Origin: Escherichia coli
GTDB taxonomy: Bacteria; Pseudomonadota; Gammaproteobacteria; Enterobacterales; Enterobacteriaceae
Reading direction: 5' to 3' (one strand)
Assembly (NCBI RefSeq): GCF_001677475.2
Contig: NZ_CP015229.1
Length of the DNA stretch: 64,000 bases
The notes beneath the pieces are model-generated. The model was not told the DNA's origin. It was given only the letters and a program-made list of their open reading frames with translations, and did no database searches. Every line of letters starts with the position of its first letter. Position 1 is the first letter of the stretch. Shown here piece by piece: positions 4,503-47,441 of the stretch. A program made the position numbers and the translations under genes.

Positions 4503-5954
4503 TTATCGCCGCCAGCGTCTGAGCAGGCGGCTTCGCATCCCGGTATCAAAGCGCCAGATATGATCGAAAATGCGCATGATGCCGGGTTTGCCATGTGCCG
4601 ACATCGCCACGGCATGAAAGCGATGCTGATGTACCCGCTGCAACTCTTTCACTTTGCTCGTCACGTCGTCAGGCAACCGCTGGGCGATAAAATCAGAAAT
4701 CACCACCGCATCGGCATCAAACCATTCCCGGCTTTGCAAGCGTTCCATAATGGCGCGAAAACAACTGGCCAGATCGGTGCCGCCACGAAACTGCTGGCTT
4801 AAAAAACGGATTGCTTGTTCGATGCCTTGTGGGCCTGAAAGCTCATAACGGACGATCTCGGTGGAAAATAACATAATATAGCAGCGCCGGTTTTCAGCGA
4901 GAGCAATGCGCATCAAGGCCAGGCAGAACGCTTTCGCACACTGTTCATTAAAGCCGCCCATTGAGCCGGAAGTATCCACACAGACAATAAACGGTCCGCG
5001 CGGCTGTTCGTCGTAATCTTTATGCACCACCGGGCGTTCGATCACTTTTTCTCGCCACGACTCACCGTGCAGGCGATAGGTGAGCAACTGTTTTTCCACC
5101 AGCCGACGGTAAAACTCATACTCCAGTTCTGTTATCCCTAGTGTCGCCAGTTCTGGCGGCAGGAGACGTAAAATATCATCGCTTTGTTGCAGACCATCAA
5201 CCTGCTCAGGAACCGTCGCCGGTTCGCGCACCAGGGTGCGGAAGGTTTCCATCTGCGCATCGTTGCGCGGTATTGATTTGGCTTCCCGGGAACGCCCCAG
5301 CTGTTCTGCCAGGCGTTTCAGTTCCGGCTGTTCGTTAAGAAATTCACCGTATTTCACAATCAACTGATAGTCGCCGCGTTTAAGCTGACCGGCGCTCATA
5401 TCCCACAGACGACCAGCTGCGGTATTGTTATCTGCGAGAATGGGTTCAAGTTGCCCGCTCAGCGTCATGCGTTCCTGAACTTCACTCAACAGTTGTTCGC
5501 GTTCTTCTTCTAATAGCTGCTGATTTAGCGTCGTTGCTTGCACGATCAGACTTAAACGCCAGCGCTGGAGAAAAAGCGTGTGTAACGCTGAAGTGATCGT
5601 ACTGTTAGCATCAACCAACTGTCGGGCTTGTTCTGCCCATGGAGAATTCAGACGATGCAGTAAGTCCAGGATCTGTGGTAGCTGCACAATAAACTGCGGC
5701 GTGGAGAGGAGCTGGCTTTGCTGATAGCACATCACCTCTTCGGTGAGTTCCGGCGGGACTCGGGCATCTTTCAGCCGACTGCGCAGTGCCTCACGCCAGC
5801 GGGGAACATCATCAGTGATTGCCGCCTTCAGTCGTGGGAATTTTTCAAAGAAGACTGCCAGCTGCGGTGAGGCCAGCAGCGCGATGATCATCTCTTCGAT
5901 CAATCCCTCTTCGCTGACGGCCAGCATCACATTAAGCGTATCCAGCGTTAGCAT
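4503..5954 (-). CDS. viaA: VWA-domain protein ViaA (YieM), partner of RavA
   Basis: 483-aa ORF; VWA-like motif region ([13 protein letters not shown]); start overlaps ravA stop by 7 nt. Confidence 0.92.
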
Positions 5955-7444
5955 TGTTGTGCCTGGCGAATCTGTGCACCGACATCCTGTAGGCTGGCTT
6001 CAATGCGACCTAACCAGTCGCCAGGGATAAACAGACATTTTTGCTGTTCGCTGAATAAAGCGTGTTGCTTGCGCCAGTCGCTTTCAAGCTCTTCCAGTTG
6101 TTGTTTTATTTCACCTGGCAGACCTTCAGCCGATGAACCGGGAAGTGCCAGCGTACTGCCTTGTAAACTTACATCGCGTACAACAAGATGTTGGGCGCTA
6201 TCAACTTCCAGATTCAGTTTCTGGGCAAAGCCGATACCGTTTAGTTTGCCGCGAATTTCACCACCTTTACTCAGCCACTGTTCCAGCGCGCTACGCTCAA
6301 AGGAGATATGAACCACTTCCATATCATGCAGTTTTAACGGTTTTTGCAGCAGCAGAGTCAGAGTGGAAGCAGTAACGTTAACAGGGAGTTGATACTGCTG
6401 ACGACGGCTGAAAATGCCGCCCAGACGAATTACCGTTAAGGCTGTTTTATCGCTTTGTTGCTGCTGTAGTTGCAGGTGACGTTGCACAATCGCGCCCAGG
6501 CGGGTCAACATCCCTTGCTGTTGCCAGGCATGACCGGTCATCAATACATCAATTTGTTGTTGTATCAAATTCAGGCTTTGCGCGTCATACCACAGGCAAT
6601 CTTTCAGCAAAATGAGATCTACCGGGGCAACAGCACTGCGACCGCTAAAAAAGGCGCTGGCCTGCAATAATCGGATCGCTTTTTTCCAGCGACGATCCGA
6701 GACATAAGGCGCATCCGGTAATTTATCCAGTTGCTGGCGCAGCATAAAAATCAGCTCAAATACATGATCGGGCAGCGTAATTTCACCAATCTCTTTCTGC
6801 CAGCGTTCATATTCTTCATCTGTGACCTGCAAGGCATCAGGAACCGGATTGTCGTTTTCATCCTGTTGACTGGTCAGCATGGAGCGGAAATTCGCTTTAT
6901 CCTGCACTTTATCTAACCACAGACGAATCAGCATGCGGTCATATAACGCTTCCAGACTGCTGTCTGCTTCCGGCAGCTCGTTGGAGGCCGCCACCAGTAG
7001 ACGCATCGGGATTTTTTCTACGTGTGCACCGTTGCGGAACTGGCGCTCGTTAATGGCGGTGAGCAAGGTATTAAGAATTGCCGGGCCCGCTTTCCAGATC
7101 TCATCCAGAAAGACGATTTCTGCTTCCGGCAGGTAACCGTTGGTTAAACGTTCATAGCGCCCTTCATCTTTTAGCGCCTGAATAGAAAGGGGACCAAAAA
7201 CTTCTTCCGGCGTGGAGAAGCGGGTCATCAGATATTCAAACGCGCGGGCATTCTGAAAGGCGAATTTTAAGCGCCGGGCGATCAAACTTTTGGCAATACC
7301 TGGCGGGCCAAGGAGGAACACACTTTCACCACTTAATGCCGCTAATAAACACAAGCGGATGGCGTGGCTACGTTCATAAAGCCCCTTTTCCAACGAACTG
7401 CTCAGGCGGGAAATTCTTTCCGCTAATAAATGAGGGTGAGCCAT
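5948..7444 (-). CDS. ravA: MoxR-family AAA+ ATPase RavA (YieN)
   Basis: ORF-track 506 aa; canonical 498-aa start [14 protein letters not shown] at ATG 7442-7444; Walker A GPPGIAKS. Confidence 0.92.
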
Positions 7445-7666: not shown

Positions 7667-9535
7667 ATGAGCACTGATAATAAGCAATCATTGCCCGCGA
7701 TTACCCTCGCGGCGATTGGAGTTGTCTACGGCGATATTGGTACCAGCCCGTTATATACACTTCGTGAATGTTTGTCCGGCCAGTTTGGTTTTGGCGTTGA
7801 ACGCGATGCCGTGTTTGGCTTTTTATCGCTGATCTTCTGGCTGCTAATCTTTGTGGTTTCCATTAAATATCTCACCTTCGTGATGCGGGCAGATAACGCC
7901 GGTGAAGGGGGGATCCTGACGTTGATGTCGCTTGCCGGGCGTAATACGTCGGCGCGAACCACATCAATGCTGGTGATTATGGGGTTAATCGGCGGCAGCT
8001 TTTTCTATGGTGAAGTCGTCATAACACCCGCTATTTCGGTGATGTCAGCCATTGAAGGTCTGGAAATCGTCGCCCCGCAGCTGGATACCTGGATAGTTCC
8101 CCTCTCAATTATCGTTCTCACTTTATTATTTATGATTCAAAAGCATGGCACGGCTATGGTCGGTAAGCTGTTTGCGCCGATCATGCTGACCTGGTTTTTG
8201 ATTCTGGCAGGACTGGGATTACGTAGCATTATTGCTAACCCGGAAGTGCTGCATGCGTTGAATCCGATGTGGGCGGTGCATTTCTTCCTTGAATACAAAA
8301 CGGTTTCTTTTATTGCATTAGGGGCAGTGGTGCTGTCGATTACGGGGGTCGAGGCGCTGTATGCTGATATGGGGCACTTTGGTAAGTTCCCTATTCGCCT
8401 GGCGTGGTTCACCGTCGTATTACCTTCCTTGACCCTTAATTACTTCGGTCAGGGAGCGTTGTTGTTAAAGAACCCGGAAGCGATTAAGAACCCGTTCTTC
8501 CTGTTGGCACCGGACTGGGCGCTGATCCCGCTGCTGATCATCGCCGCACTGGCAACGGTAATTGCCTCGCAGGCGGTTATCTCTGGCGTCTTCTCATTGA
8601 CGCGTCAGGCGGTACGTCTGGGATATTTGTCGCCGATGCGCATTATTCACACCTCCGAAATGGAGTCAGGGCAAATCTATATTCCGTTTGTGAACTGGAT
8701 GCTCTATGTCGCGGTCGTGATTGTGATTGTCAGCTTTGAGCACTCCAGCAACCTGGCGGCGGCGTACGGGATTGCGGTGACCGGAACCATGGTGCTGACG
8801 TCTATTCTCTCGACTACCGTGGCACGTCAGAACTGGCACTGGAATAAGTATTTTGTTGCGCTGATCCTGATTGCTTTCCTTTGTGTCGATATTCCATTGT
8901 TCACCGCTAACCTCGATAAACTGCTCTCCGGCGGCTGGTTGCCATTGAGCCTCGGTACGGTGATGTTTATCGTGATGACCACCTGGAAGAGCGAGCGTTT
9001 CCGCTTGCTGCGGCGGATGCATGAACATGGTAACTCTCTGGAAGCGATGATTGCTTCGCTGGAGAAATCACCGCCCGTTCGCGTGCCCGGGACCGCAGTG
9101 TATATGTCGCGTGCAATCAACGTCATTCCCTTTGCGCTGATGCATAACCTTAAACATAACAAGGTATTGCATGAGCGGGTGATTCTGTTAACTCTGCGCA
9201 CCGAAGACGCGCCATATGTCCATAACGTCCGTCGGGTACAGATTGAACAACTGTCGCCCACTTTCTGGCGCGTGGTGGCAAGTTATGGTTGGCGAGAAAC
9301 GCCAAACGTGGAAGAAGTATTCCACCGCTGCGGTCTGGAAGGATTAAGTTGCCGGATGATGGAAACCTCCTTCTTTATGTCGCATGAGTCGTTGATCCTC
9401 GGCAAACGCCCGTGGTATTTGCGTCTGCGCGGTAAGCTGTACTTGCTGTTGCAACGTAATGCGCTGCGTGCGCCGGATCAATTTGAAATCCCGCCAAACA
9501 GGGTTATCGAACTGGGTACTCAGGTCGAAATCTAA
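7667..9535 (+). CDS. kup: Low-affinity K+ uptake transporter Kup (TrkD)
   Basis: 622-aa [34 protein letters not shown], multi-pass membrane protein. Confidence 0.95.
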
Positions 9536-9541
9536 CGCCAG

Positions 9542-9577
9542 ACGCCTCCTTTCTCCATAAGGGGGCGTTTTTGTTTT
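9542..9577 (+). terminator. Intrinsic terminator downstream of kup
   Basis: 8-bp GC-rich stem ACGCCTCC/GGGGGCGT followed by TTTTTGTTTT, directly after the kup stop. Confidence 0.75.
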
Positions 9578-9670
9578 CATGGTTAATCACCATGTAAAAC
9601 GTTTCGAGGTTGATCACATTTCCGTAACGTCACGATGGTTTTCCCAACTCAGTCAGGATTAAACTGCGGG

Positions 9671-9690
9671 TCAGCGAAACGTTTCGCTGA
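9671..9690. promoter_or_regulatory. RbsR operator (perfect 20-bp palindrome TCAGCGAAAC|GTTTCGCTGA) at the rbs promoter
   Basis: Perfect inverted repeat read directly from sequence just upstream of the rbsD start; matches the LacI/GalR-type half-site expected for RbsR. Confidence 0.8.
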
Positions 9691-9701
9691 TGGAGAAAAA
9701 A

Positions 9702-10121
9702 ATGAAAAAAGGCACCGTTCTTAATTCTGATATTTCATCGGTGATCTCCCGACTGGGACATACCGATACGCTGGTGGTGTGTGATGCAGGTTTACCCATC
9801 CCCAAAAGTACAACGCGTATCGATATGGCATTAACCCAGGGTGTACCTTCTTTTATGCAGGTGCTGGGCGTCGTCACAAATGAAATGCAGGTCGAGGCAG
9901 CCATTATCGCGGAAGAGATCAAACAACATAATCCGCAACTCCACGAAACGTTGCTCACTCACCTTGAGCAGCTGCAAAAACACCAGGGAAATACCATTGA
10001 AATTCGTTACACCACGCATGAACAATTCAAACAACAAACCGCAGAAAGTCAGGCGGTAATTCGCAGCGGAGAATGTTCTCCGTATGCGAATATCATTCTC
10101 TGTGCTGGCGTGACGTTCTGA
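9702..10121 (+). CDS. rbsD: D-ribose pyranase RbsD
   Basis: 139-aa [34 protein letters not shown] from ATG 9702 (GGAG 6 nt upstream); ORF track starts 4 codons earlier. Confidence 0.93.
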
Positions 10122-10128
10122 GGCCGTC

Positions 10129-11634
10129 ATGGAAGCATTACTTCAGCTTAAAGGCATCGATAAAGCCTTCCCGGGCGTAAAAGCCCTCTCGGGTGCAGCG
10201 TTAAATGTCTATCCTGGCCGCGTGATGGCGCTGGTGGGCGAAAACGGTGCGGGTAAATCCACCATGATGAAAGTGCTTACGGGTATCTATACTCGCGATG
10301 CCGGTACGCTTTTATGGCTGGGGAAAGAAACGACGTTTACCGGGCCGAAATCTTCCCAGGAAGCCGGGATTGGGATTATCCATCAGGAACTGAACCTGAT
10401 CCCGCAGTTGACCATTGCCGAAAACATTTTCCTCGGTCGTGAGTTTGTTAATCGCTTTGGCAAAATTGACTGGAAAACCATGTATGCCGAAGCGGATAAA
10501 TTGCTGGCTAAACTTAACCTGCGCTTTAAAAGCGACAAGCTGGTGGGCGATCTTTCCATCGGTGACCAGCAAATGGTTGAAATTGCCAAAGTGCTGAGCT
10601 TTGAGTCGAAAGTCATCATTATGGATGAACCGACCGATGCGCTGACCGATACCGAAACCGAATCCTTGTTCCGCGTCATCCGCGAGCTGAAATCGCAAGG
10701 CCGCGGTATTGTCTATATTTCCCACCGCATGAAAGAAATCTTCGAGATTTGCGATGACGTTACCGTTTTTCGTGATGGGCAATTTATTGCTGAGCGTGAA
10801 GTAGCATCACTGACCGAAGATTCGCTGATTGAGATGATGGTGGGCCGCAAGCTGGAAGATCAATATCCGCACCTGGACAAAGCGCCAGGAGATATTCGCC
10901 TGAAAGTCGATAATCTCTGCGGACCTGGCGTTAACGATGTCTCTTTTATTTTACGCAAAGGCGAAATTCTTGGCGTCTCTGGTTTGATGGGCGCAGGTCG
11001 TACCGAACTGATGAAAGTGCTCTACGGCGCACTGCCGCGCACCAGCGGTTACGTCACCCTGGATGGGCATGAAGTTGTTACCCGTTCACCGCAGGATGGC
11101 CTGGCAAACGGCATTGTGTATATCTCCGAAGACCGTAAACGCGACGGTTTGGTGCTGGGCATGTCAGTAAAAGAGAATATGTCGCTGACCGCGCTGCGCT
11201 ACTTCAGCCGTACTGGTGGCAGTTTGAAGCATGCCGATGAACAGCAGGCAGTAAGTGATTTCATTCGTCTGTTTAATGTGAAAACGCCGTCGATGGAACA
11301 GGCAATTGGTCTGCTTTCCGGTGGCAATCAGCAAAAAGTGGCGATTGCCCGTGGTCTGATGACACGCCCCAAAGTGTTGATCCTCGATGAGCCTACCCGT
11401 GGCGTAGATGTCGGCGCGAAAAAAGAGATCTATCAACTGATTAACCAGTTCAAAGCCGATGGCTTGAGCATCATTCTGGTGTCATCGGAGATGCCAGAAG
11501 TATTAGGCATGAGCGATCGCATCATCGTCATGCATGAAGGGCATCTCAGCGGGGAATTTACTCGTGAGCAGGCCACCCAGGAAGTGTTAATGGCTGCCGC
11601 TGTGGGCAAGCTTAATCGCGTGAATCAGGAGTAA
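10129..11634 (+). CDS. rbsA: Ribose ABC transporter ATP-binding protein RbsA (duplicated ABC domains)
   Basis: 501-aa ORF with two Walker A motifs ([18 protein letters not shown]). Confidence 0.95.
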
Positions 11635-11638
11635 AAAA

Positions 11639-12604
11639 ATGACAACCCAGACTGTCTCTGGTCGCCGTTATTTCACGAAAGCGTGGCTGATGGAGCAGAA
11701 ATCGCTTATCGCTCTGCTGGTGCTGATCGCGATTGTCTCGACGTTAAGTCCGAACTTTTTCACCATCAATAACTTATTCAATATTCTCCAGCAAACTTCG
11801 GTGAACGCCATTATGGCGGTCGGGATGACGCTGGTGATCCTGACGTCGGGCATAGACTTGTCGGTAGGTTCTCTGTTGGCGCTAACCGGCGCAGTTGCTG
11901 CATCTATCGTCGGCATTGAAGTCAATGCGCTGGTGGCTGTCGCTGCTGCTCTCGCGTTAGGTGCCGCAATTGGTGCGGTAACAGGGGTGATTGTAGCGAA
12001 AGGTCGCGTCCAGGCGTTTATCGCTACGCTGGTTATGATGCTTTTACTGCGCGGCGTGACCATGGTTTATACCAACGGTAGCCCAGTGAATACCGGCTTT
12101 ACTGAGAACGCCGATCTGTTTGGCTGGTTTGGTATTGGTCGTCCGCTGGGCGTACCGACGCCAGTCTGGATCATGGGGATTGTCTTCCTCGCGGCCTGGT
12201 ACATGCTGCATCACACGCGTCTGGGGCGTTACATCTACGCGCTGGGCGGCAACGAAGCGGCAACGCGTCTTTCTGGTATCAACGTCAATAAAATCAAAAT
12301 CATCGTCTATTCTCTTTGTGGTCTGCTGGCATCACTGGCCGGGATCATTGAAGTGGCGCGTCTCTCCTCCGCACAACCCACGGCGGGGACTGGCTATGAG
12401 CTGGATGCTATTGCTGCGGTGGTTCTGGGCGGTACGAGTCTGGCGGGCGGAAAAGGTCGCATTGTTGGGACGTTGATCGGCGCATTAATTCTTGGCTTCC
12501 TTAATAATGGATTGAATTTGTTAGGTGTTTCCTCCTATTACCAGATGATCGTCAAAGCGGTGGTGATTTTGCTGGCGGTGCTGGTAGACAACAAAAAGCA
12601 GTAA
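11639..12604 (+). CDS. rbsC: Ribose ABC transporter permease RbsC
   Basis: 321-aa hydrophobic ORF MTTQTVSGRRYFTKAWLMEQKSLIALLVLIAIV. Confidence 0.95.
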   Translation: MTTQTVSGRRYFTKAWLMEQKSLIALLVLIAIVSTLSPNFFTINNLFNILQQTSVNAIMAVGMTLVILTSGIDLSVGSLLALTGAVAASIVGIEVNALVAVAAALALGAAIGAVTGVIVAKGRVQAFIATLVMMLLLRGVTMVYTNGSPVNTGFTENADLFGWFGIGRPLGVPTPVWIMGIVFLAAWYMLHHTRLGRYIYALGGNEAATRLSGINVNKIKIIVYSLCGLLASLAGIIEVARLSSAQPTAGTGYELDAIAAVVLGGTSLAGGKGRIVGTLIGALILGFLNNGLNLLGVSSYYQMIVKAVVILLAVLVDNKKQ

Positions 12605-12628
12605 TAACGACTACAGGACATCTTGAAT

Positions 12629-13489
12629 ATGAACATGAAAAAACTGGCTACCCTGGTTTCCGCTGTTGCGCTAAGCGCCACCGTCAGTGCGAATGCGATG
12701 GCAAAAGACACCATCGCGCTGGTGGTCTCCACGCTTAACAACCCGTTCTTTGTATCGCTGAAAGATGGCGCGCAGAAAGAGGCGGATGAACTTGGCTATA
12801 ACCTGGTGGTGCTGGACTCCCAGAACAACCCGGCGAAAGAGCTGGCGAACGTGCAGGACTTAACCGTTCGCGGCACCAAAATTCTGCTGATTAACCCGAC
12901 CGACTCCGACGCAGTGGGTAATGCTGTGAAGATGGCTAATCAGGCGAACATCCCGGTTATCACTCTTGACCGCCAGGCAACGAAAGGTGAAGTGGTGAGC
13001 CACATTGCATCTGATAACGTACTGGGCGGCAAAATCGCCGGTGATTACATCGCGAAGAAAGCGGGCGAAGGTGCCAAAGTTATCGAGCTGCAAGGCATTG
13101 CTGGTACATCCGCAGCCCGTGAACGTGGCGAAGGCTTCCAGCAGGCCGTTGCTGCTCACAAGTTTAATGTTCTTGCCAGCCAGCCAGCAGATTTTGATCG
13201 CACCAAAGGTTTGAACGTAATGCAGAACCTGTTGACCGCTCATCCGGATGTTCAGGCTGTATTTGCACAGAATGATGAAATGGCGCTGGGCGCGCTGCGC
13301 GCACTGCAAACTGCCGGTAAATCGGATGTGATGGTCGTCGGATTTGACGGTACACCGGATGGCGAAAAAGCGGTTAATGATGGCAAACTAGCAGCGACTA
13401 TCGCTCAGCTACCCGATCAGATTGGCGCGAAAGGCGAGAAAGTTCAGGCTAAGTATCCGGTTGATCTAAAACTGGTTGTTAAGCAGTAG
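12629..13489 (+). CDS. rbsB: Periplasmic ribose-binding protein RbsB (appears ~10 codons shorter than the K-12 protein; see findings)
   Basis: [25 protein letters not shown] signal peptide then [16 protein letters not shown]; ATG at 12629 with AGGA upstream; C-terminus reads [23 protein letters not shown]. Confidence 0.9.
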
Positions 13490-13571
13490 TTTTAATCAGG
13501 TTGTATGACCTGATGATGACATAAATACGTCATCGACAGATGAACGTGTAATATAAAGAAAAGCAGGGCAC

Positions 13572-13599
13572 GCGCCACCCTAACACGGTGGCGCATTTT
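13572..13599 (+). terminator. Hairpin (GCGCCACC / GGTGGCGC) plus short T-run between rbsB and rbsK; possible partial terminator or attenuator
   Basis: 8-bp GC stem with 7-nt loop followed by ATTTTA, read from sequence. Confidence 0.4.
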
Positions 13600-13614
13600 A
13601 TGGACATCCCGAAT

Positions 13615-14544
13615 ATGCAAAACGCAGGCAGCCTCGTTGTTCTTGGCAGCATTAATGCTGACCACATTCTTAATCTTCAATCTTTTCCTACCCCAGGCGA
13701 AACCGTAACCGGTAACCACTATCAGGTTGCATTTGGCGGCAAAGGCGCGAATCAGGCTGTGGCTGCTGGGCGTAGCGGTGCGAATATCGCGTTTATTGCC
13801 TGTACTGGCGATGACAGCATTGGCGAGAGCGTTCGCCAGCAGCTCGCCACTGATAACATCGATATTACTCCGGTCAGCGTGATCAAAGGCGAATCAACAG
13901 GTGTGGCGCTGATTTTTGTTAATGGCGAAGGTGAGAATGTCATTGGTATTCATGCCGGCGCTAATGCTGCCCTTTCCCCTGCGCTGGTGGAAGCGCAACG
14001 TGAGCGTATTGCCAACGCGTCAGCATTATTAATGCAGCTGGAATCACCACTCGAAAGTGTGATGGCAGCGGCGAAAATCGCCCATCAAAATAAGACTATC
14101 GTTGCGCTTAACCCGGCTCCGGCTCGCGAACTTCCTGACGAACTGCTAGCGCTGGTGGACATTATTACGCCAAACGAAACGGAAGCAGAAAAGCTCACCG
14201 GTATTCGTGTTGAAAATGATGAAGATGCAGCGAAGGCGGCGCAGGTACTGCATGAAAAAGGTATCCGTACTGTACTGATTACTTTAGGAAGTCGTGGTGT
14301 ATGGGCTAGCGTGAATGGTGAAGGTCAGCGCGTTCCTGGATTCCGGGTGCAGGCTGTCGATACCATTGCAGCCGGAGATACCTTTAACGGCGCGTTAATC
14401 ACGGCGTTGCTGGAAGAAAAACCATTGCCAGAGGCGATTCGGTTTGCCCATGCTGCCGCTGCGATTGCCGTAACACGTAAAGGCGCACAACCTTCCGTAC
14501 CGTGGCGTGAAGAGATCGACGTATTTTTAGACAGGCAGAGGTGA
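13615..14544 (+). CDS. rbsK: Ribokinase RbsK
   Basis: 309-aa MQNAGSLVVLGSINADHILNLQSFPTPGETVTG from ATG 13615; ORF track starts 9 codons earlier at a GTG. Confidence 0.93.
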   Translation: MQNAGSLVVLGSINADHILNLQSFPTPGETVTGNHYQVAFGGKGANQAVAAGRSGANIAFIACTGDDSIGESVRQQLATDNIDITPVSVIKGESTGVALIFVNGEGENVIGIHAGANAALSPALVEAQRERIANASALLMQLESPLESVMAAAKIAHQNKTIVALNPAPARELPDELLALVDIITPNETEAEKLTGIRVENDEDAAKAAQVLHEKGIRTVLITLGSRGVWASVNGEGQRVPGFRVQAVDTIAAGDTFNGALITALLEEKPLPEAIRFAHAAAAIAVTRKGAQPSVPWREEIDVFLDRQR

Positions 14545-14547
14545 CGC

Positions 14548-15540
14548 TTGGCTACAATGAAAGATGTTGCCCGTCTGGCGGGCGTTTCTACCTCAACAGT
14601 TTCTCACGTTATCAATAAAGATCGCTTCGTCAGTGAAGCGATTACCGCCAAAGTTGAAGCGGCGATTAAAGAACTCAATTACGCGCCATCAGCTCTGGCG
14701 CGTAGCCTCAAACTCAATCAAACACATACCATTGGCATGTTGATCACTGCCAGTACCAATCCTTTCTATTCAGAACTGGTGCGTGGCGTTGAACGCAGCT
14801 GCTTCGAACGCGGTTATAGTCTCGTCCTTTGCAATACCGAAGGCGATGAACAGCGGATGAATCGCAATCTGGAAACGCTGATGCAAAAACGCGTTGATGG
14901 CTTACTGTTACTGTGCACCGAAACGCATCAGCCTTCGCGTGAAATCATGCAACGTTATCCGACAGTGCCTACCGTGATGATGGACTGGGCTCCGTTCGAT
15001 GGCGACAGCGATCTTATTCAGGATAACTCGTTGCTGGGCGGAGACTTAGCAACGCAATATCTGATCGATAAAGGTCATACCCGTATCGCCTGTATTACCG
15101 GTCCGCTGGATAAAACTCCGGCGCGCCTGCGGTTGGAAGGTTATCGGGCGGCGATGAAACGTGCGGGTCTCAACATTCCTGATGGCTATGAAGTCACTGG
15201 TGATTTTGAATTTAATGGCGGGTTTGACGCCATGCGCCAACTGTTATCACATCCGCTGCGTCCTCAGGCCGTCTTTACCGGAAATGACGCTATGGCTGTT
15301 GGCGTTTACCAGGCGCTGTATCAGGCAGAGTTACAGGTTCCACAGGATATCGCGGTGATTGGCTATGACGATATCGAATTGGCAAGCTTTATGACGCCAC
15401 CATTAACCACTATCCACCAACCGAAAGATGAACTGGGGGAGCTGGCGATTGATGTACTCATCCATCGGATAACCCAGCCGACCCTTCAGCAACAACGATT
15501 ACAACTTACTCCGATTCTGATGGAACGCGGTTCGGCTTAG
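14548..15540 (+). CDS. rbsR: LacI-family ribose operon repressor RbsR
   Basis: 330-codon [35 protein letters not shown] (HTH); begins at TTG 14548. Confidence 0.92.
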
Positions 15541-16933
15541 ATTTACGCTGTCTTTTGATCAAATTATTACCATCGGTTGTTTTCAGAAGCATGAACATTG
15601 CTGCTGAAGCAACAGTAATAATGCCCATCGTGATAAACGTATAGTGGAATTGTTCTACAGTCGTTGTGCCTTCCATCCCTTCATAAACGCGAAGGACGGC
15701 CGCACTTACAGCAACGCCTAAACTGATCGACAGTTGCTGCGTGACCGCCAGAACACTGTTACCGCTGCTGGCGTTGTCATCGGTCAGATCGGCAAGTGTG
15801 ATGGTATTCATCGCGGTAAACTGCGTCGACATAGCCATCCCTAATATAAACAACGGCAAGATTAGCATCCATATCGCCATTGCCGGTGATTGCAAAGAGA
15901 ACTGAGCGATCATTAACCCAATAATCACCGTGATCCCCACTAATGTATGGCGATAGCCCAGACGACGTAAGACTTGGGTAACCATCGATTTTGCAATAAT
16001 GGAACCTAACGCTGTCGGTGCCATCATACAGCCGGCAATAAACGCCTGATAACCAAATCCTACCTGTAACATCAATGGCATAAGAAACGGTACGCAGCCG
16101 GTCCCCAGACGGGTTGCAATATTGCCTACGATACCGATCGAGAAAGTGCGGGTTTTAAATAAATCTAATGAAATTAATGGGTTTGGCGTGCGTCGTGCAT
16201 GGAGAATATAGAGAAGCAGTAACCCGATGCTGGTGACAATTACCGTCAAGGCAATCCAGCTGGCGACAATCTTTTCCCCGAATAGCTCTATTCCGCTTGA
16301 GAAGAGAACAAGGCTGAGGCCAAACAGCAAAAAGCCAGTGATATCGAATCTGCGTCGTGCGGTGGTGAAATTGGGCATATGTTTGCGCGCGTAAAGAAGG
16401 CCCGCAATACCTATGGGGATATTGATTAAAAATATCCAGTGCCAGGTTGCCCAAGTGACCAGCACGCCGCCAAGAACGGGGCCTAAAATTGGCCCCACCA
16501 GACCCGGCATGGCGACAAAATTCAATACCGGAAGAAGTTCATTACGAGGATAAGCACGCAGTAAGGCCAGCCGAGCAACAGGCATCATCATTGCGCCGCC
16601 TATCCCCTGAATAACCCGGAAGACAACCAGCTGTGGTAGCGAGTTGGAAAGTGCGCAGGCCAGAGAACCCAACGTGAACAGACTCACGGCAAGGGTAAAA
16701 ATGCGACGCGTACCGAAGCGATCGGCTAGCCATCCGCTTACCGGAATAAGCATCGCCACCGTCAGCGTATAACTGATGATGGCTGATTGCATCGCGAGAG
16801 GAGAACGATTAAGGCTATGAGCGATTGCGGGTAAGGCGGTATTCAGAATAGTGGCATCAAGTGCCTGCATGAAGAAGGCCATCGCCGCGATCCACGGCAA
16901 ACCCGACATACTGCGCTTCTTTTTATCGCTCAT
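15506..16933 (-). CDS. hsrA: MFS-family transporter HsrA (YieO)
   Basis: 475-aa hydrophobic [41 protein letters not shown]; 3' end overlaps rbsR by 35 nt (convergent). Confidence 0.9.
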
Positions 16934-16955
16934 TCAATGTCCTGTTATCGGGTTA

Positions 16956-17648
16956 TCACTTATCAGGTGAGCGTAGCAGCGCCTGACAAGCTTTAAATGC
17001 CGCGTCGCCATCGCTTTGGATAATCGCATCGACAATCGCCTGATGCAGATCCAGCTTTATCACTGTGTCGCTGGTAATTGACGTGAAGTAAGTGTGATAA
17101 ACTGAATGGAATAGCGAGGCGAATGAGGTCAAAAACGGATTGGCGCTCATTTCATAGATATGCTCATGCCAGGCCATATCGACTTCGATCCAGCGTTCAC
17201 GGCGAAAGTTCTCTTTTAATGCCGCCATTTCGGCCATTAACGTATTGAGATGCGCTTTCTGTTCTGCGGTGCCAACCGTTGCTGCCAGTAGGCAGGCTTG
17301 CGGCTCCAGACAGATACGCATAACCAGAAAGTGATCGATGACCTGATGAAAGTTCTCTTCTGTCATCCACCAGGTAAGCAATTCCTGATCAAGAAAATTC
17401 CAGTTCGATTGTGGCATTACCCGGGTACCAATTCGCGGTCGCGGTAAAACCATCCCTTTTGCCGTTAACGTTTTGACCGCTTCGCGTACCGCTGTACGAC
17501 TCACTCCAAATTGCTCGCCCAGCTCAATCTCACCGGGCAAAATGGTGCCGGGTTCATATTCACCTTTTAAGATCCGTTGCGCCAGCTTCTCAGCCAGAAC
17601 ATACGAAAGGTTTTTCTGTGCAGCTAACTGTTGTGCGCTTAAAGGCAT
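16956..17648 (-). CDS. yieP: GntR-family transcriptional regulator YieP
   Basis: 230-aa ORF with N-terminal wHTH (GEIELGEQFGVSRTAVREAVKTL). Confidence 0.9.
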   Translation of the reverse strand: MPLSAQQLAAQKNLSYVLAEKLAQRILKGEYEPGTILPGEIELGEQFGVSRTAVREAVKTLTAKGMVLPRPRIGTRVMPQSNWNFLDQELLTWWMTEENFHQVIDHFLVMRICLEPQACLLAATVGTAEQKAHLNTLMAEMAALKENFRRERWIEVDMAWHEHIYEMSANPFLTSFASLFHSVYHTYFTSITSDTVIKLDLHQAIVDAIIQSDGDAAFKACQALLRSPDK

Positions 17649-17774
17649 TACTAATCTTCCTTTTTCTTTTTATTCCTCCTTAGTATGCCACCAGGAAGTG
17701 TGATTACGGTTGCAAAAACGGCAAATTGCTTGTTTTATGGCACATTAACGGGGCTTTTGCTGAAAAAATGCGCG

Positions 17775-17828
17775 GTCAGAAAATTATTTTAAATTTCCTC
17801 TTGTCAGGCCGGAATAACTCCCTATAAT
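17775..17828 (+). promoter_or_regulatory. rrn P1 promoter with A/T-rich UP element (-35 TTGTCA 17801-17806, -10 TATAAT 17823-17828)
   Basis: TTGTCAGGCCGGAATAACTCCCTATAATGCGCCACCACTG is the canonical rrn P1 core, preceded by AAAATTATTTTAAATTTCCTC. Confidence 0.9.
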
Positions 17829-17917
17829 GCGCCACCACTGACACGGAACAACGGCAAACACGCCGCCGGGTCAGCGGGGTTCTCCTGAGAATCTCAACAG
17901 AGAAAAGCAAAAAATGC

Positions 17918-17945
17918 TTGACTCTGTAGCGGGAAAGCGTATTAT
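17918..17945 (+). promoter_or_regulatory. rrn P2 promoter (-35 TTGACT, -10 TATTAT)
   Basis: TTGACTCTGTAGCGGGAAAGCGTATTATGC matches rrn P2. Confidence 0.85.
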
Positions 17946-17982
17946 GCACACCCCGCGCCGCTGAGAAAAAGCGAAGCGGCAC

Positions 17983-17995
17983 TGCTCTTTAACAA
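17983..17995 (+). promoter_or_regulatory. rrn antitermination boxA (TGCTCTTTAACAA) in the 16S leader
   Basis: Exact boxA consensus read in the leader. Confidence 0.85.
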
Positions 17996-18126
17996 TTTAT
18001 CAGACAATCTGTGTGGGCACTCGAAGATACGGATTCTTAACGTCGCAAGACGAAAAATGAATACCAAGTCTCAAGAGTGAACACGTAATTCATTACGAAG
18101 TTTAATTCTTTGAGCATCAAACTTTT

Positions 18127-46310: not shown

Positions 46311-47441
46311 GTGAAAGTACTGACTGTATTTGGTACGCGCCCGGAAGCCATCAAGATGGCTCCGTTGGTGCATGCGTTGGCAAAAGATCCTTTTTTTGAG
46401 GCTAAAGTTTGCGTCACTGCGCAGCATCGGGAGATGCTCGATCAGGTGCTGAAACTCTTTTCCATTGTACCTGACTACGATCTCAACATAATGCAGCCAG
46501 GACAGGGCCTGACAGAGATAACCTGTCGGATTCTGGAAGGGCTAAAACCAATTCTTGCCGAGTTCAAACCAGACGTCGTGCTGGTTCACGGCGATACTAC
46601 GACGACGCTGGCAACCAGCCTGGCGGCGTTTTATCAGCGTATTCCTGTTGGTCACGTTGAGGCTGGTCTGCGCACGGGCGATCTCTATTCGCCGTGGCCG
46701 GAAGAGGCTAACCGTACATTGACCGGGCATCTGGCGATGTATCACTTCTCTCCAACCGAAACTTCCCGGCAAAACTTGCTGCGTGAAAATGTTGCTGACA
46801 GCCGAATCTTCATTACCGGTAATACAGTTATTGATGCACTGTTATGGGTGCGTGACCAGGTGATGAGCAGCGATACGCTGCGTTCAGAACTGGCGGCAAA
46901 TTACCCGTTTATCGACCCCAATAAAAAAATGATTCTGGTGACCGGTCACAGGCGTGAGAGCTTCGGTCGTGGCTTTGAAGAAATCTGCCATGCGCTGGCA
47001 GACATCGCCACCACGCATCAGGACATCCAGATTGTCTATCCAGTGCATCTCAACCCGAACGTCAGAGAGCCGGTCAATCGCATTCTGGGGCATGTGAAAA
47101 ATGTCATTCTGATCGATCCCCAGGAGTATTTACCGTTTGTCTGGCTGATGAACCACGCCTGGCTGATTTTGACCGACTCAGGCGGCATTCAGGAAGAGGC
47201 GCCTTCGCTGGGGAAACCGGTGCTGGTGATGCGCGATACCACTGAGCGTCCGGAAGCGGTGACGGCGGGTACGGTGCGTCTGGTAGGCACGGATAAGCAG
47301 CGAATTGTCGAGGAAGTGACGCGTCTTTTAAAAGACGAAAACGAATATCAAGCTATGAGCCGCGCCCATAACCCGTATGGTGATGGTCAGGCATGCTCTC
47401 GCATTCTGGAAGCGTTAAAAAATAATCGGATATCACTATGA
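46311..47441 (+). CDS. wecB: UDP-N-acetylglucosamine 2-epimerase WecB (RffE)
   Basis: 376-aa (M)[46 protein letters not shown] from GTG 46311; ORF-track upstream extension rejected. Confidence 0.92.

Follow-up and report, generated by a model that had tools for sequence, protein, structure and literature searches.

The rbs operon, its RbsR operator and the spacer-less convergent rbsR/hsrA junction in an Escherichia coli chromosome

Here we report a comparative analysis of the ribose-utilisation region in a 64,000-nucleotide stretch of an Escherichia coli chromosome (contig NZ_CP015229.1; hereafter the window). The region is the canonical rbsDACBKR operon of an E. coli-type chromosome, followed by a convergent yieP-hsrA unit. 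It is very probably explained as a whole by a standard rbs operon under the operator rbsO, a convergent junction with hsrA at which transcripts end by Rho, an incidental overlap of the two coding regions, and Chi sites that represent codon pairs.

Gene content and relation to K-12

The genes and terminators of the region are as follows.

kup, open reading frame ending at 9535 (open reading frame list)
9540-9570, + strand, terminator-like hairpin of kup with T-run (terminator scan), bounding the rbs control region on its upstream side
9702-10121, + strand, rbsD, D-ribose pyranase (open reading frame, annotation, profile)
10129-11634, + strand, rbsA, ATPase of the ribose ABC transporter (open reading frame, annotation)
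11639-12604, + strand, rbsC, permease of the ribose ABC transporter (open reading frame, annotation)
12629-13489, + strand, rbsB, periplasmic ribose-binding protein, allele with an in-frame deletion
13572-13599, + strand, intrinsic terminator after rbsB, 3' end of the RbsZ sRNA (scan and Term-seq)
13615-14544, + strand, rbsK, ribokinase (open reading frame, annotation)
14548-15540, + strand, rbsR, LacI-family ribose repressor, with annotated TTG start and TAG stop at 15538-15540
15506-16933, - strand, hsrA (yieO; PGAP name mdtD), MFS transporter (open reading frame, annotation, profile)
16956-17648, - strand, yieP, GntR/FadR-family regulator, co-oriented with hsrA and upstream of it

The gene identities given in an earlier note on this DNA were correct: the NCBIfam scores of RbsR (694.7 bits, cut-off 531) and RbsD (222, cut-off 93) lie above equivalog cut-offs, and that of HsrA/MdtD (458.8) exceeds the subfamily cut-off of 426. 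The window is collinear with positions 3,923,650-3,987,813 of E. coli K-12 at about 98% identity, and no insertion sequence or other rearrangement breaking this collinearity was seen across it. The region was matched in 5417 of 5426 complete E. coli genomes (95-99% identity, with the rbs/mdtD/yieP annotation carried along), the best identity of the rbs region among the 5,426 being 99.1%. An Rfam E-value scan of positions 9000-18000 returned only a sub-threshold Ysr197 match, in the rrnC leader. The rbsB allele carries a 30-bp in-frame deletion (junction at 13428/13429) that neither K-12 nor strain 2012C-4502 has.

Control region of rbsD

Upstream of rbsD, the following elements were assigned.

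9594-9607, O2, upstream RbsR-type box and candidate second operator (column conservation)
9603-9618, putative class I CRP site TTCGA-N6-TCACA, centred at about -61.5 from the predicted transcription start
9660-9665, + strand, predicted -10 hexamer TAAACT of the rbsD promoter (conserved tA.ACT columns)
9671-9690, O1 or rbsO, the RbsR operator, a 20-bp perfect palindrome (conservation and RbsR co-crystal)

Mauzy and Hermodson (1992; reference 82 in PMC10965054) reportedly described rbsO as the RbsR operator of the K-12 rbsDACBKR operon, with RbsR binding that is reversed by ribose. In the window, the palindrome TCAGCGAAACGTTTCGCTGA lies exactly at 9671-9690, leaving 11 nt between it and the annotated rbsD ATG (9702), and the cognate rbsR is encoded at 14548-15540; another ATG, at 9690, touches the palindrome and differs from the annotated start. 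The sequence is that of the rbsO DNA co-crystallised with RbsR (PDB 9NY7/9NY8; bioRxiv 10.1101/2025.04.02.646877), and these entries were also the top match for the RbsR protein of the window. All 20 palindrome positions match the crystallised oligonucleotide, and 29 of its 30 nt are identical, the exception being one flanking base (GCGGG in the window, GTGGG in the 30-mer). As in experimentally bound rbsO, the palindrome is even, with a central CG and the core AAACGTTT. Its 16-bp core AGCGAAACGTTTCGCT (9673-9688) is invariant in 73 of 75 loci, and conservation drops to 20-60% in the flanking columns. The earlier note's reading of this palindrome as the RbsR operator at the rbsD promoter is thus borne out in both position and sequence.

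Although TCAGCGAAACGTTTCGCTGA is the longest perfect palindrome of the 64-kb window and finds no second match there at up to 3 mismatches, its length carries little weight: among 200 Markov-1 random sequences of 64 kb, 16 also held a perfect palindrome of at least 20 bp (p about 0.08 per 64 kb). Significance from length alone was therefore rejected, and the case for the operator rests on position, conservation and the published structure. With transcription predicted to start at about 9672, an RbsR dimer of the LacI family on rbsO would sit just downstream of the -10 hexamer and span the start site, and bound RbsR would block rbs transcription until ribose frees the repressor.

Two further conserved elements lie upstream. 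The motif GATCACA is at least 90% conserved, and its spacing to the O2 centre is fixed at 13 nt in 75 of 75 loci. By its resemblance to the consensus TGTGA-N6-TCACA, the segment 9603-9618 would be a CRP site, from which CRP at about -61.5 would activate rbs transcription. The left (upstream) half of this putative site overlaps O2, which reads GTAAAACGTTTCGA in the window and GCGAAACGTTTCGA in other genera. In the window, the centres of O2 (9600/9601) and O1 lie 80 bp apart, with O2 upstream (78-80 bp across Enterobacteriaceae); the columns of O2 are at least 90% conserved across 74 distinct upstream regions, and the box is degenerate in Escherichia. We tentatively put forward GCGAAACGTTTCGA as a second RbsR operator in the rbsD control region of Enterobacteriaceae, a proposal drawn from column conservation that we consider somewhat less probable than its converse. 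Under this proposal, repressor on O1 would bar RNA polymerase and repressor on O2 would keep CRP off the DNA; alternatively, RbsR would form a bridge between the two boxes. The annotation of a single operator in E. coli may be due to the decay of O2 to GTAAAACGTTTCGA in Escherichia, and if O2 is an operator, rbs regulation in most enterobacteria may involve two operators and be under-represented by the E. coli model.

Convergent junction of rbsR and hsrA

Two features describe the junction.

15506-15540, 35-nt convergent overlap of the coding ends of rbsR and hsrA (both stop codons)
about 15244 (approximate), - strand, Rho-dependent termination peak of the hsrA-strand transcript (mapped from K-12 position 3938923)

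The 35-nt overlap described in the earlier note keeps its coordinates and is annotated with an identical layout in E. coli 2012C-4502 and in K-12 (3939185-3939219). Since stop codons set both of its ends, it is independent of the choice of start codons; the hsrA stop TAA (15506-15508) is antisense to the rbsR codons CTT-ACT (Leu-Thr). The junction was surveyed in 76 Enterobacteriaceae loci with both genes (about 25 genera), with frames walked to the stop codon. The two genes abut in all 76, with an overlap of 35 nt in 29 loci, 4 nt in 28, 9 nt in 5, 53 nt in 3 and 24 nt in 1, and a 2-nt gap in the remaining 10; the 2-nt gap and the 53-nt overlap are the extremes. The 35-nt form is specific to the Escherichia/Citrobacter/Salmonella/Enterobacter/Leclercia group and arises because hsrA runs past the stop position used by most other genera, beside the rbsR stop. 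The gene thereby extends to the next stop, antisense to the Leu-Thr codons of rbsR, and gains a weakly constrained tail of 10 residues. The overlap takes in the last 10 hsrA codons, whose residues lie beyond the end of the MdtD profile alignment (residue 465 of 475). Identity is 62% in the tail and 85% for HsrA as a whole. Substitutions in the tail (R/P/H, N/T/S, V/A, E/K) track synonymous changes in rbsR.

That these last residues fall outside the profile and are poorly conserved, and that 28 loci place the hsrA stop no more than 4 nt from the end of rbsR, might be taken to mean that the overlap is an annotation artefact, with HsrA truly ending earlier or hsrA unexpressed and no real dual coding. 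We regard this as highly improbable, as in-frame stop codons rather than start choice fix the overlap, the 29 loci with the 35-nt overlap contain no earlier in-frame stop, and hsrA is intact across them at 82-100% identity. Lacking such a stop, translation of HsrA must reach 15506 if hsrA is translated at all. The comparison suggests instead that the exact 35-nt overlap is incidental and without regulatory function. Spacer-less convergent genes thus persist throughout the family while overlap length drifts by loss of stop codons; the conserved abutment itself, with a gap that never exceeds 2 nt in any genus sampled, could reflect selection for transcript overlap.

The absence of an intervening terminator, also noted earlier, was upheld by every approach used. 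A consensus scan of both strands returned no hairpin and T-run resembling a terminator at the junction or close to it, folding gave z = -2.1 on the + strand, without a U-tract hairpin, and z = -0.3 on the - strand, and RNAalifold across 29 genera returned 0 consensus pairs. An embedded intrinsic or bidirectional terminator was ruled out on these grounds. Published K-12 Term-seq data list no 3' end within hsrA or on the strand opposite rbsR; in file 1, hsrA has 0 entries and rbsR only an internal + strand end (PMC7815308). Discrete, non-overlapping 3' ends, for which the earlier note had proposed a Term-seq check, are therefore absent from this one K-12 dataset, in which rbs-side transcription is low because sampling was done without ribose. 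For both 3' ends and Rho, the published data were obtained with K-12 in LB or glucose (the Rho set in LB only), and as the rbs operon is repressed there, they give no direct view of what becomes of the rbs-side transcript at the junction.

A Rho region was called antisense to rbsR at K-12 3938923(-), with a modest score of 2.78 (p 7.6e-6) and a position defined with 800-nt windows (Adams et al. 2021 eLife, PMC7815308, Suppl. file 2). Its peak falls about 262 nt past the hsrA stop, inside antisense rbsR. Because rbsR and hsrA abut without a spacer, neither transcript ends at an intergenic intrinsic terminator. Each polymerase would enter the antisense strand of the other gene after its ribosome leaves, and Rho would be the main stop inside the opposing gene, giving overlapping 3' ends (a convergent 'excludon'). 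The rbs-side transcript may be terminated by Rho in the same manner, and where two genes meet without a spacer, as here, termination apparently falls to Rho within the gene opposite.

Transcript overlap of this kind has been recorded: from 58 MG1655 RNA-seq sets, ExcludonFinder calls rbsR-hsrA a convergent excludon in no fewer than 50% (NAR 2025, PMC12288877, Table 1), a call that comes from K-12 rather than from the strain of the window and from a tool that accepts any coverage overlap, so that overlapping coding sequences qualify almost automatically. The earlier suggestion that the junction allows transcriptional interference or antisense effects accordingly stands for transcript overlap only, as documented by this entry and by the Rho region antisense to rbsR. 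In a functional excludon, collisions and/or double-stranded RNA cut by RNase III would make induction of one unit lower the other, and the level of the ribose repressor would be coupled to HsrA/YieP expression. Such a function is unlikely. Besides transcript overlap in most MG1655 sets, it would account for the missing spacer in all 76 loci of about 25 genera, and head-on RNA polymerase collisions are reported to aid termination at convergent E. coli pairs (bioRxiv 10.1101/2022.10.23.513370). However, the collision model needs a positioning stem-loop, and none is conserved at the junction; overlap length drifts freely from a 2-nt gap to 53 nt, the hsrA tail is weakly constrained, and two loci (L002, L018) keep an intact rbsR despite loss or truncation of hsrA. 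Moreover, few polymerases should reach the junction, as the rbsB terminator appears to end a large share of rbs transcription and a Rho region is also present inside rbsR. The rbsB terminator (13572-13599) matches a strong Term-seq 3' end (K-12 3937278), whose score exceeds that of the rbsR-internal end about 100-fold. A literature search retrieved no paper pairing rbsR with yieO and no expression data on the rbsR-hsrA pair.

Chi sites and comparison with known systems

Seven Chi octamers lie within the operon.

9770-14158, + strand, seven Chi octamers starting at 9770, 10230, 10539, 11929, 12718, 13983 and 14151 (octamer scan)

The origin oriC was located at about 2095-2326, which places the rbs operon to its right and makes + the leading strand; GC skew is +0.045. 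Chi sites (GCTGGTGG) are enriched on this strand: the window holds 19, with 2.2 expected, and 18 of the 19 are on +. Both the + strand sites reported before, including 9770-9777 and 12718-12725, and the leading-strand bias ascribed to them were thus recovered. The local excess (7 in 6 kb, with about 1.3-1.8 expected; post-hoc Poisson p 0.0004-0.002) was set aside as a distinct feature; all seven sites in 9536-15540 share the codon phase nnG-CTG-GTG-Gnn, that is, one Leu-Val pair, and the excess is treated as a by-product of codon usage. The Chi sites are Leu-Val pairs (CTG-GTG) in genes co-oriented with replication.

For E. coli, textbooks or databases cover the rbs operon, rbsO, the 35-nt overlap and the Chi bias, and the finding is correct but ordinary, as rbsO has been crystallised and the overlap is already annotated and catalogued. 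New are the 76-locus survey of the junction, the clade-specific 35-nt form and the read-on tail of hsrA, the absence of conserved RNA structure at the junction, the single Leu-Val codon phase of the Chi sites and, from published K-12 data, the lack of a Term-seq end at the junction and the Rho region in antisense rbsR. The region matters little as a discovery, and the added value is modest and comparative, lying in the spacer-less junction and the O2 box.

Like convergent pairs with bidirectional intrinsic terminators, rbsR and hsrA are convergent genes whose transcripts meet head-on. Bidirectional termination at such pairs needs an intergenic stem-loop (SEnd-seq and RNA polymerase collision work; bioRxiv 10.1101/2022.10.23.513370), whereas rbsR/hsrA has neither intergenic space nor a conserved stem-loop; the GC-rich stem-loop with A-/T-tracts that marks these terminators was found there neither by the scan nor in the 29-genus RNAalifold analysis. 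Among the convergent excludons of MG1655 (PMC12288877), rbsR-hsrA is itself an entry of Table 1, but it is named once, on a coverage-based call and without a functional test in that paper. With the Rho-ended antisense and read-through transcripts of PMC7815308, the junction shares a bicyclomycin-sensitive region antisense to rbsR and downstream of the hsrA stop, but the + strand antisense to hsrA has no called region in those LB data. Finally, the operon of the window differs from that of E. coli K-12 by the 30-bp in-frame deletion in rbsB, and agrees with it in gene order, in operator sequence and in the 11-nt spacing between the operator and the rbsD ATG.

The rbsR/hsrA junction

The ORF list places the two convergent genes, the second of which is also named yieO or mdtD, as follows:

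14548-15540, + strand, rbsR
15506-16933, - strand, hsrA (475-codon ORF)

The 35-nt overlap of their 3' ends described in an earlier note was recovered exactly (15506-15540), and is independent of start-codon choice because both limits are set by stop codons. The annotation of Escherichia coli K-12 has the identical 35-nt overlap (rbsR, 3938227-3939219; hsrA, 3939185-3940612). Among the compared Enterobacteriaceae loci, rbsR and hsrA abut in all 76 that contain both genes.

Spacing of rbsR and hsrA in the 76 loci

35-nt overlap: 29 loci (Escherichia, Citrobacter, Salmonella, Enterobacter, Leclercia)
4-nt overlap: 28 loci (Klebsiella, Raoultella, Pluralibacter and others)
2-nt gap: 10 loci (Kluyvera, Atlantibacter)
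9-nt overlap: 5 loci (Kosakonia)
53-nt overlap: 3 loci (rbsR stop codon lost)
24-nt overlap: 1 locus

Both rbsR and yieP are kept in Escherichia sp. MOD1-EC7003 (locus L002), where hsrA is a short remnant (6597-6758), and in Enterobacteriaceae bacterium RIT714 (locus L018), where hsrA is absent downstream of rbsR. Codon-level inspection showed interlocking stop codons of the two genes in the 4-nt class, whereas hsrA of the 35-nt class lacks a stop codon at this point and continues to a TAA antisense to the rbsR codons CTT-ACT. The MdtD profile alignment stops at residue 465 of 475, and the HsrA tail lies beyond it. This extra 10-residue tail is 62% identical among the non-Escherichia members, compared with 85% for the entire HsrA, and its radical substitutions follow synonymous changes in rbsR; the ten added residues appear to be weakly constrained. 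From the comparison of loci, we conclude that the spacer-less junction is ancestral and stable, and that the 35-nt length is likely a clade-specific by-product.

Transcript ends at the junction

A consensus scan of both strands at and near the junction yielded no hairpin with a T-run, in agreement with the claim that the two genes lack an intervening terminator. Conserved RNA structure across the junction was not detected (RNAalifold, 0 pairs, 29 genera), single-sequence folds of the junction were unremarkable, and an Rfam search returned no family matching it. A sub-threshold Rfam match to Ysr197 was located in the rrnC promoter/leader (17756-18000, + strand); it scores 74.6 bits, and the gathering threshold is 167.

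The Term-seq data for K-12 (Adams et al. 2021; PMC7815308, Suppl. file 1) list a very strong 3' end at the terminator after rbsB, which is also the 3' end of the sRNA RbsZ (3937278; window 13599), a weak 3' end within rbsR (3938325, + strand; window 14646), and, for cells grown without ribose, zero 3' ends in hsrA or antisense to rbsR. The same study reports a Rho-dependent region antisense to rbsR (3938923, - strand; Rho score 2.78, p 7.6e-6). Its approximate position in the window, 15244, is 262 nt beyond the hsrA stop codon. Further Rho-dependent regions are reported within rbsR (3938387, + strand) and within hsrA (3940281, - strand). Both the Term-seq and the Rho data come from cells without ribose and hence with low traffic from the rbs side. 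In addition, rbsR-hsrA is among the 165 convergent excludons (neighbouring genes with overlapping transcripts) that were seen in 50% or more of 58 RNA-seq sets from MG1655 (ExcludonFinder; PMC12288877).

Term-seq, the Rho table and ExcludonFinder together support a course of events in which transcripts would read into the opposing gene and then undergo Rho-dependent termination. The published K-12 data show this for the hsrA strand; for the rbs strand, we infer it. We argue that any regulatory effect of the overlap is probably small, because its length drifts and a strong terminator lies upstream.

The 5' part of rbsR contains a palindromic hairpin, GATCGCTTCGTCAGTGAAGCGATT (14621-14642), which also scores terminator-like on the - strand. 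The hairpin and the adjoining stretch at about 14646-14708 coincide with the K-12 Term-seq end 3938325(+) and the Rho-dependent region 3938387(+). This suggests that transcription is terminated prematurely within rbsR.

Known and candidate operators at the rbsD promoter

The sequence TCAGCGAAACGTTTCGCTGA, located exactly at 9671-9690, is a perfect 20-bp palindrome, as had been stated, and the longest of its kind in the 64-kb window. Length alone is not compelling evidence, because a perfect palindrome of at least 20 bp turns up in about 8% of random 64-kb sequences generated by a Markov-1 model. The runner-up, CGTCTTTTAAAAGACG (16 bp; 47322-47337, inside wecB by K-12 offset), has a length that is common by chance. 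The palindrome at 9671-9690 is the operator rbsO (O1); this perfect dyad was reportedly first defined, as spanning the rbs transcription start, by Mauzy and Hermodson in 1992 (cited in PMC10965054). RbsR has been crystallised on the 30-mer GTGGGTCAGCGAAACGTTTCGCTGATGGAG (2025 preprint), and the RbsR-DNA structures PDB 9NY7 and 9NY8 are the best sequence match for the RbsR of the window.

The operator was compared across 75 loci with readable upstream regions, representing about 25 genera of Enterobacteriaceae, from an 80-locus set without E. coli or Shigella entries. In 73 of these 75 loci, the 16-bp core AGCGAAACGTTTCGCT is unchanged; the complete 20-bp perfect palindrome occurs only in Escherichia and one Mangrovibacter locus, and the right end of O1 reads ...GCTAG in most other genera.

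An alignment of 74 distinct rbsD upstream regions revealed six conserved blocks: an upstream box (O2), GATCACA, GaTgGTTtT, tA.ACT, O1, and the Shine-Dalgarno sequence TGGaG. By inference from this layout, the -10 element would lie at 9660-9665 and transcription would start near 9672, so that O1 would cover about +1 to +19 relative to the predicted start; a putative class I CRP site would be centred near -61.5.

O2, an RbsR-type box that reads GCGAAACGTTTCGA, is conserved at 90% or more among the 74 distinct upstream regions (matching position in loci L002-L081). The distance between the centres of O2 and O1 is 78-80 bp, with O2 upstream, and the O2 centre always precedes the TCACA half-site of the putative CRP site by 13 nt; O2 overlaps the left half of this CRP site. 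In Escherichia and in the window, O2 has degenerated to GTAAAACGTTTCGA (9594-9607, centre 9600/9601). A single RbsR operator is annotated for the E. coli rbs operon (2012 paper, PMC3505978). Judged from its conservation and position, O2 is a candidate site that may represent a second RbsR operator antagonising CRP.

Chi sites, the rbsB allele and the K-12 counterpart

The Chi sequence GCTGGTGG occurs seven times within 9536-15540, including both sites cited previously, and 19 times in the window (2.2 expected). Eighteen of the 19 are on the + strand; the sole - strand site (5096-5103) lies in the asnA/viaA region, right of oriC. All seven operon sites share one codon phase (nnG-CTG-GTG-Gnn, Leu-Val), which makes them by-products of codon preference in genes transcribed in the direction of replication, a reading that fits the established understanding of Chi strand bias. 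The entire window is collinear with K-12 MG1655 (3,923,650-3,987,813; ~98% identity), which places oriC at about 2095-2326 (K-12 3925744-3925975), between mnmG and mioC, with DnaA boxes at 2152 and 2332. The + strand is thus leading to the right of oriC, as proposed.

In comparison with K-12 and E. coli 2012C-4502, rbsB of the window (12629-13489) has a 30-bp in-frame deletion at 13428/13429, flanked by the 8-bp direct repeats GAAAGGCG, which removes ten residues (KGVETADKVL) and probably inactivates the ribose-binding protein, judging from the sequence. It is a real allele, since the identical shortened RbsB is present on 16 public contigs. The deletion falls within the long form of RbsZ but affects neither its terminator hairpin nor AGAAAAGCAGGGC (13557-13569), a stretch that we take to be complementary to the RybB seed.

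The annotated gene order is kup, rbsD, rbsA, rbsC, rbsB, rbsK and rbsR, followed by convergent mdtD (hsrA/yieO) and yieP, and then rrnC. RbsR and RbsD exceed the NCBIfam equivalog cut-offs, and HsrA exceeds the MdtD subfamily cut-off. Compared with 5,426 complete genomes of E. coli, the 7.7-kb rbs region (9300-17000) matches 5417 at 95-99% identity, with a top value of 99.1% and most values below 99%. Together with the lack of E. coli and Shigella entries among the 80 loci, this indicates that the source lineage is missing from the collections searched. Each element of the finding is already known from K-12 annotation or the literature.
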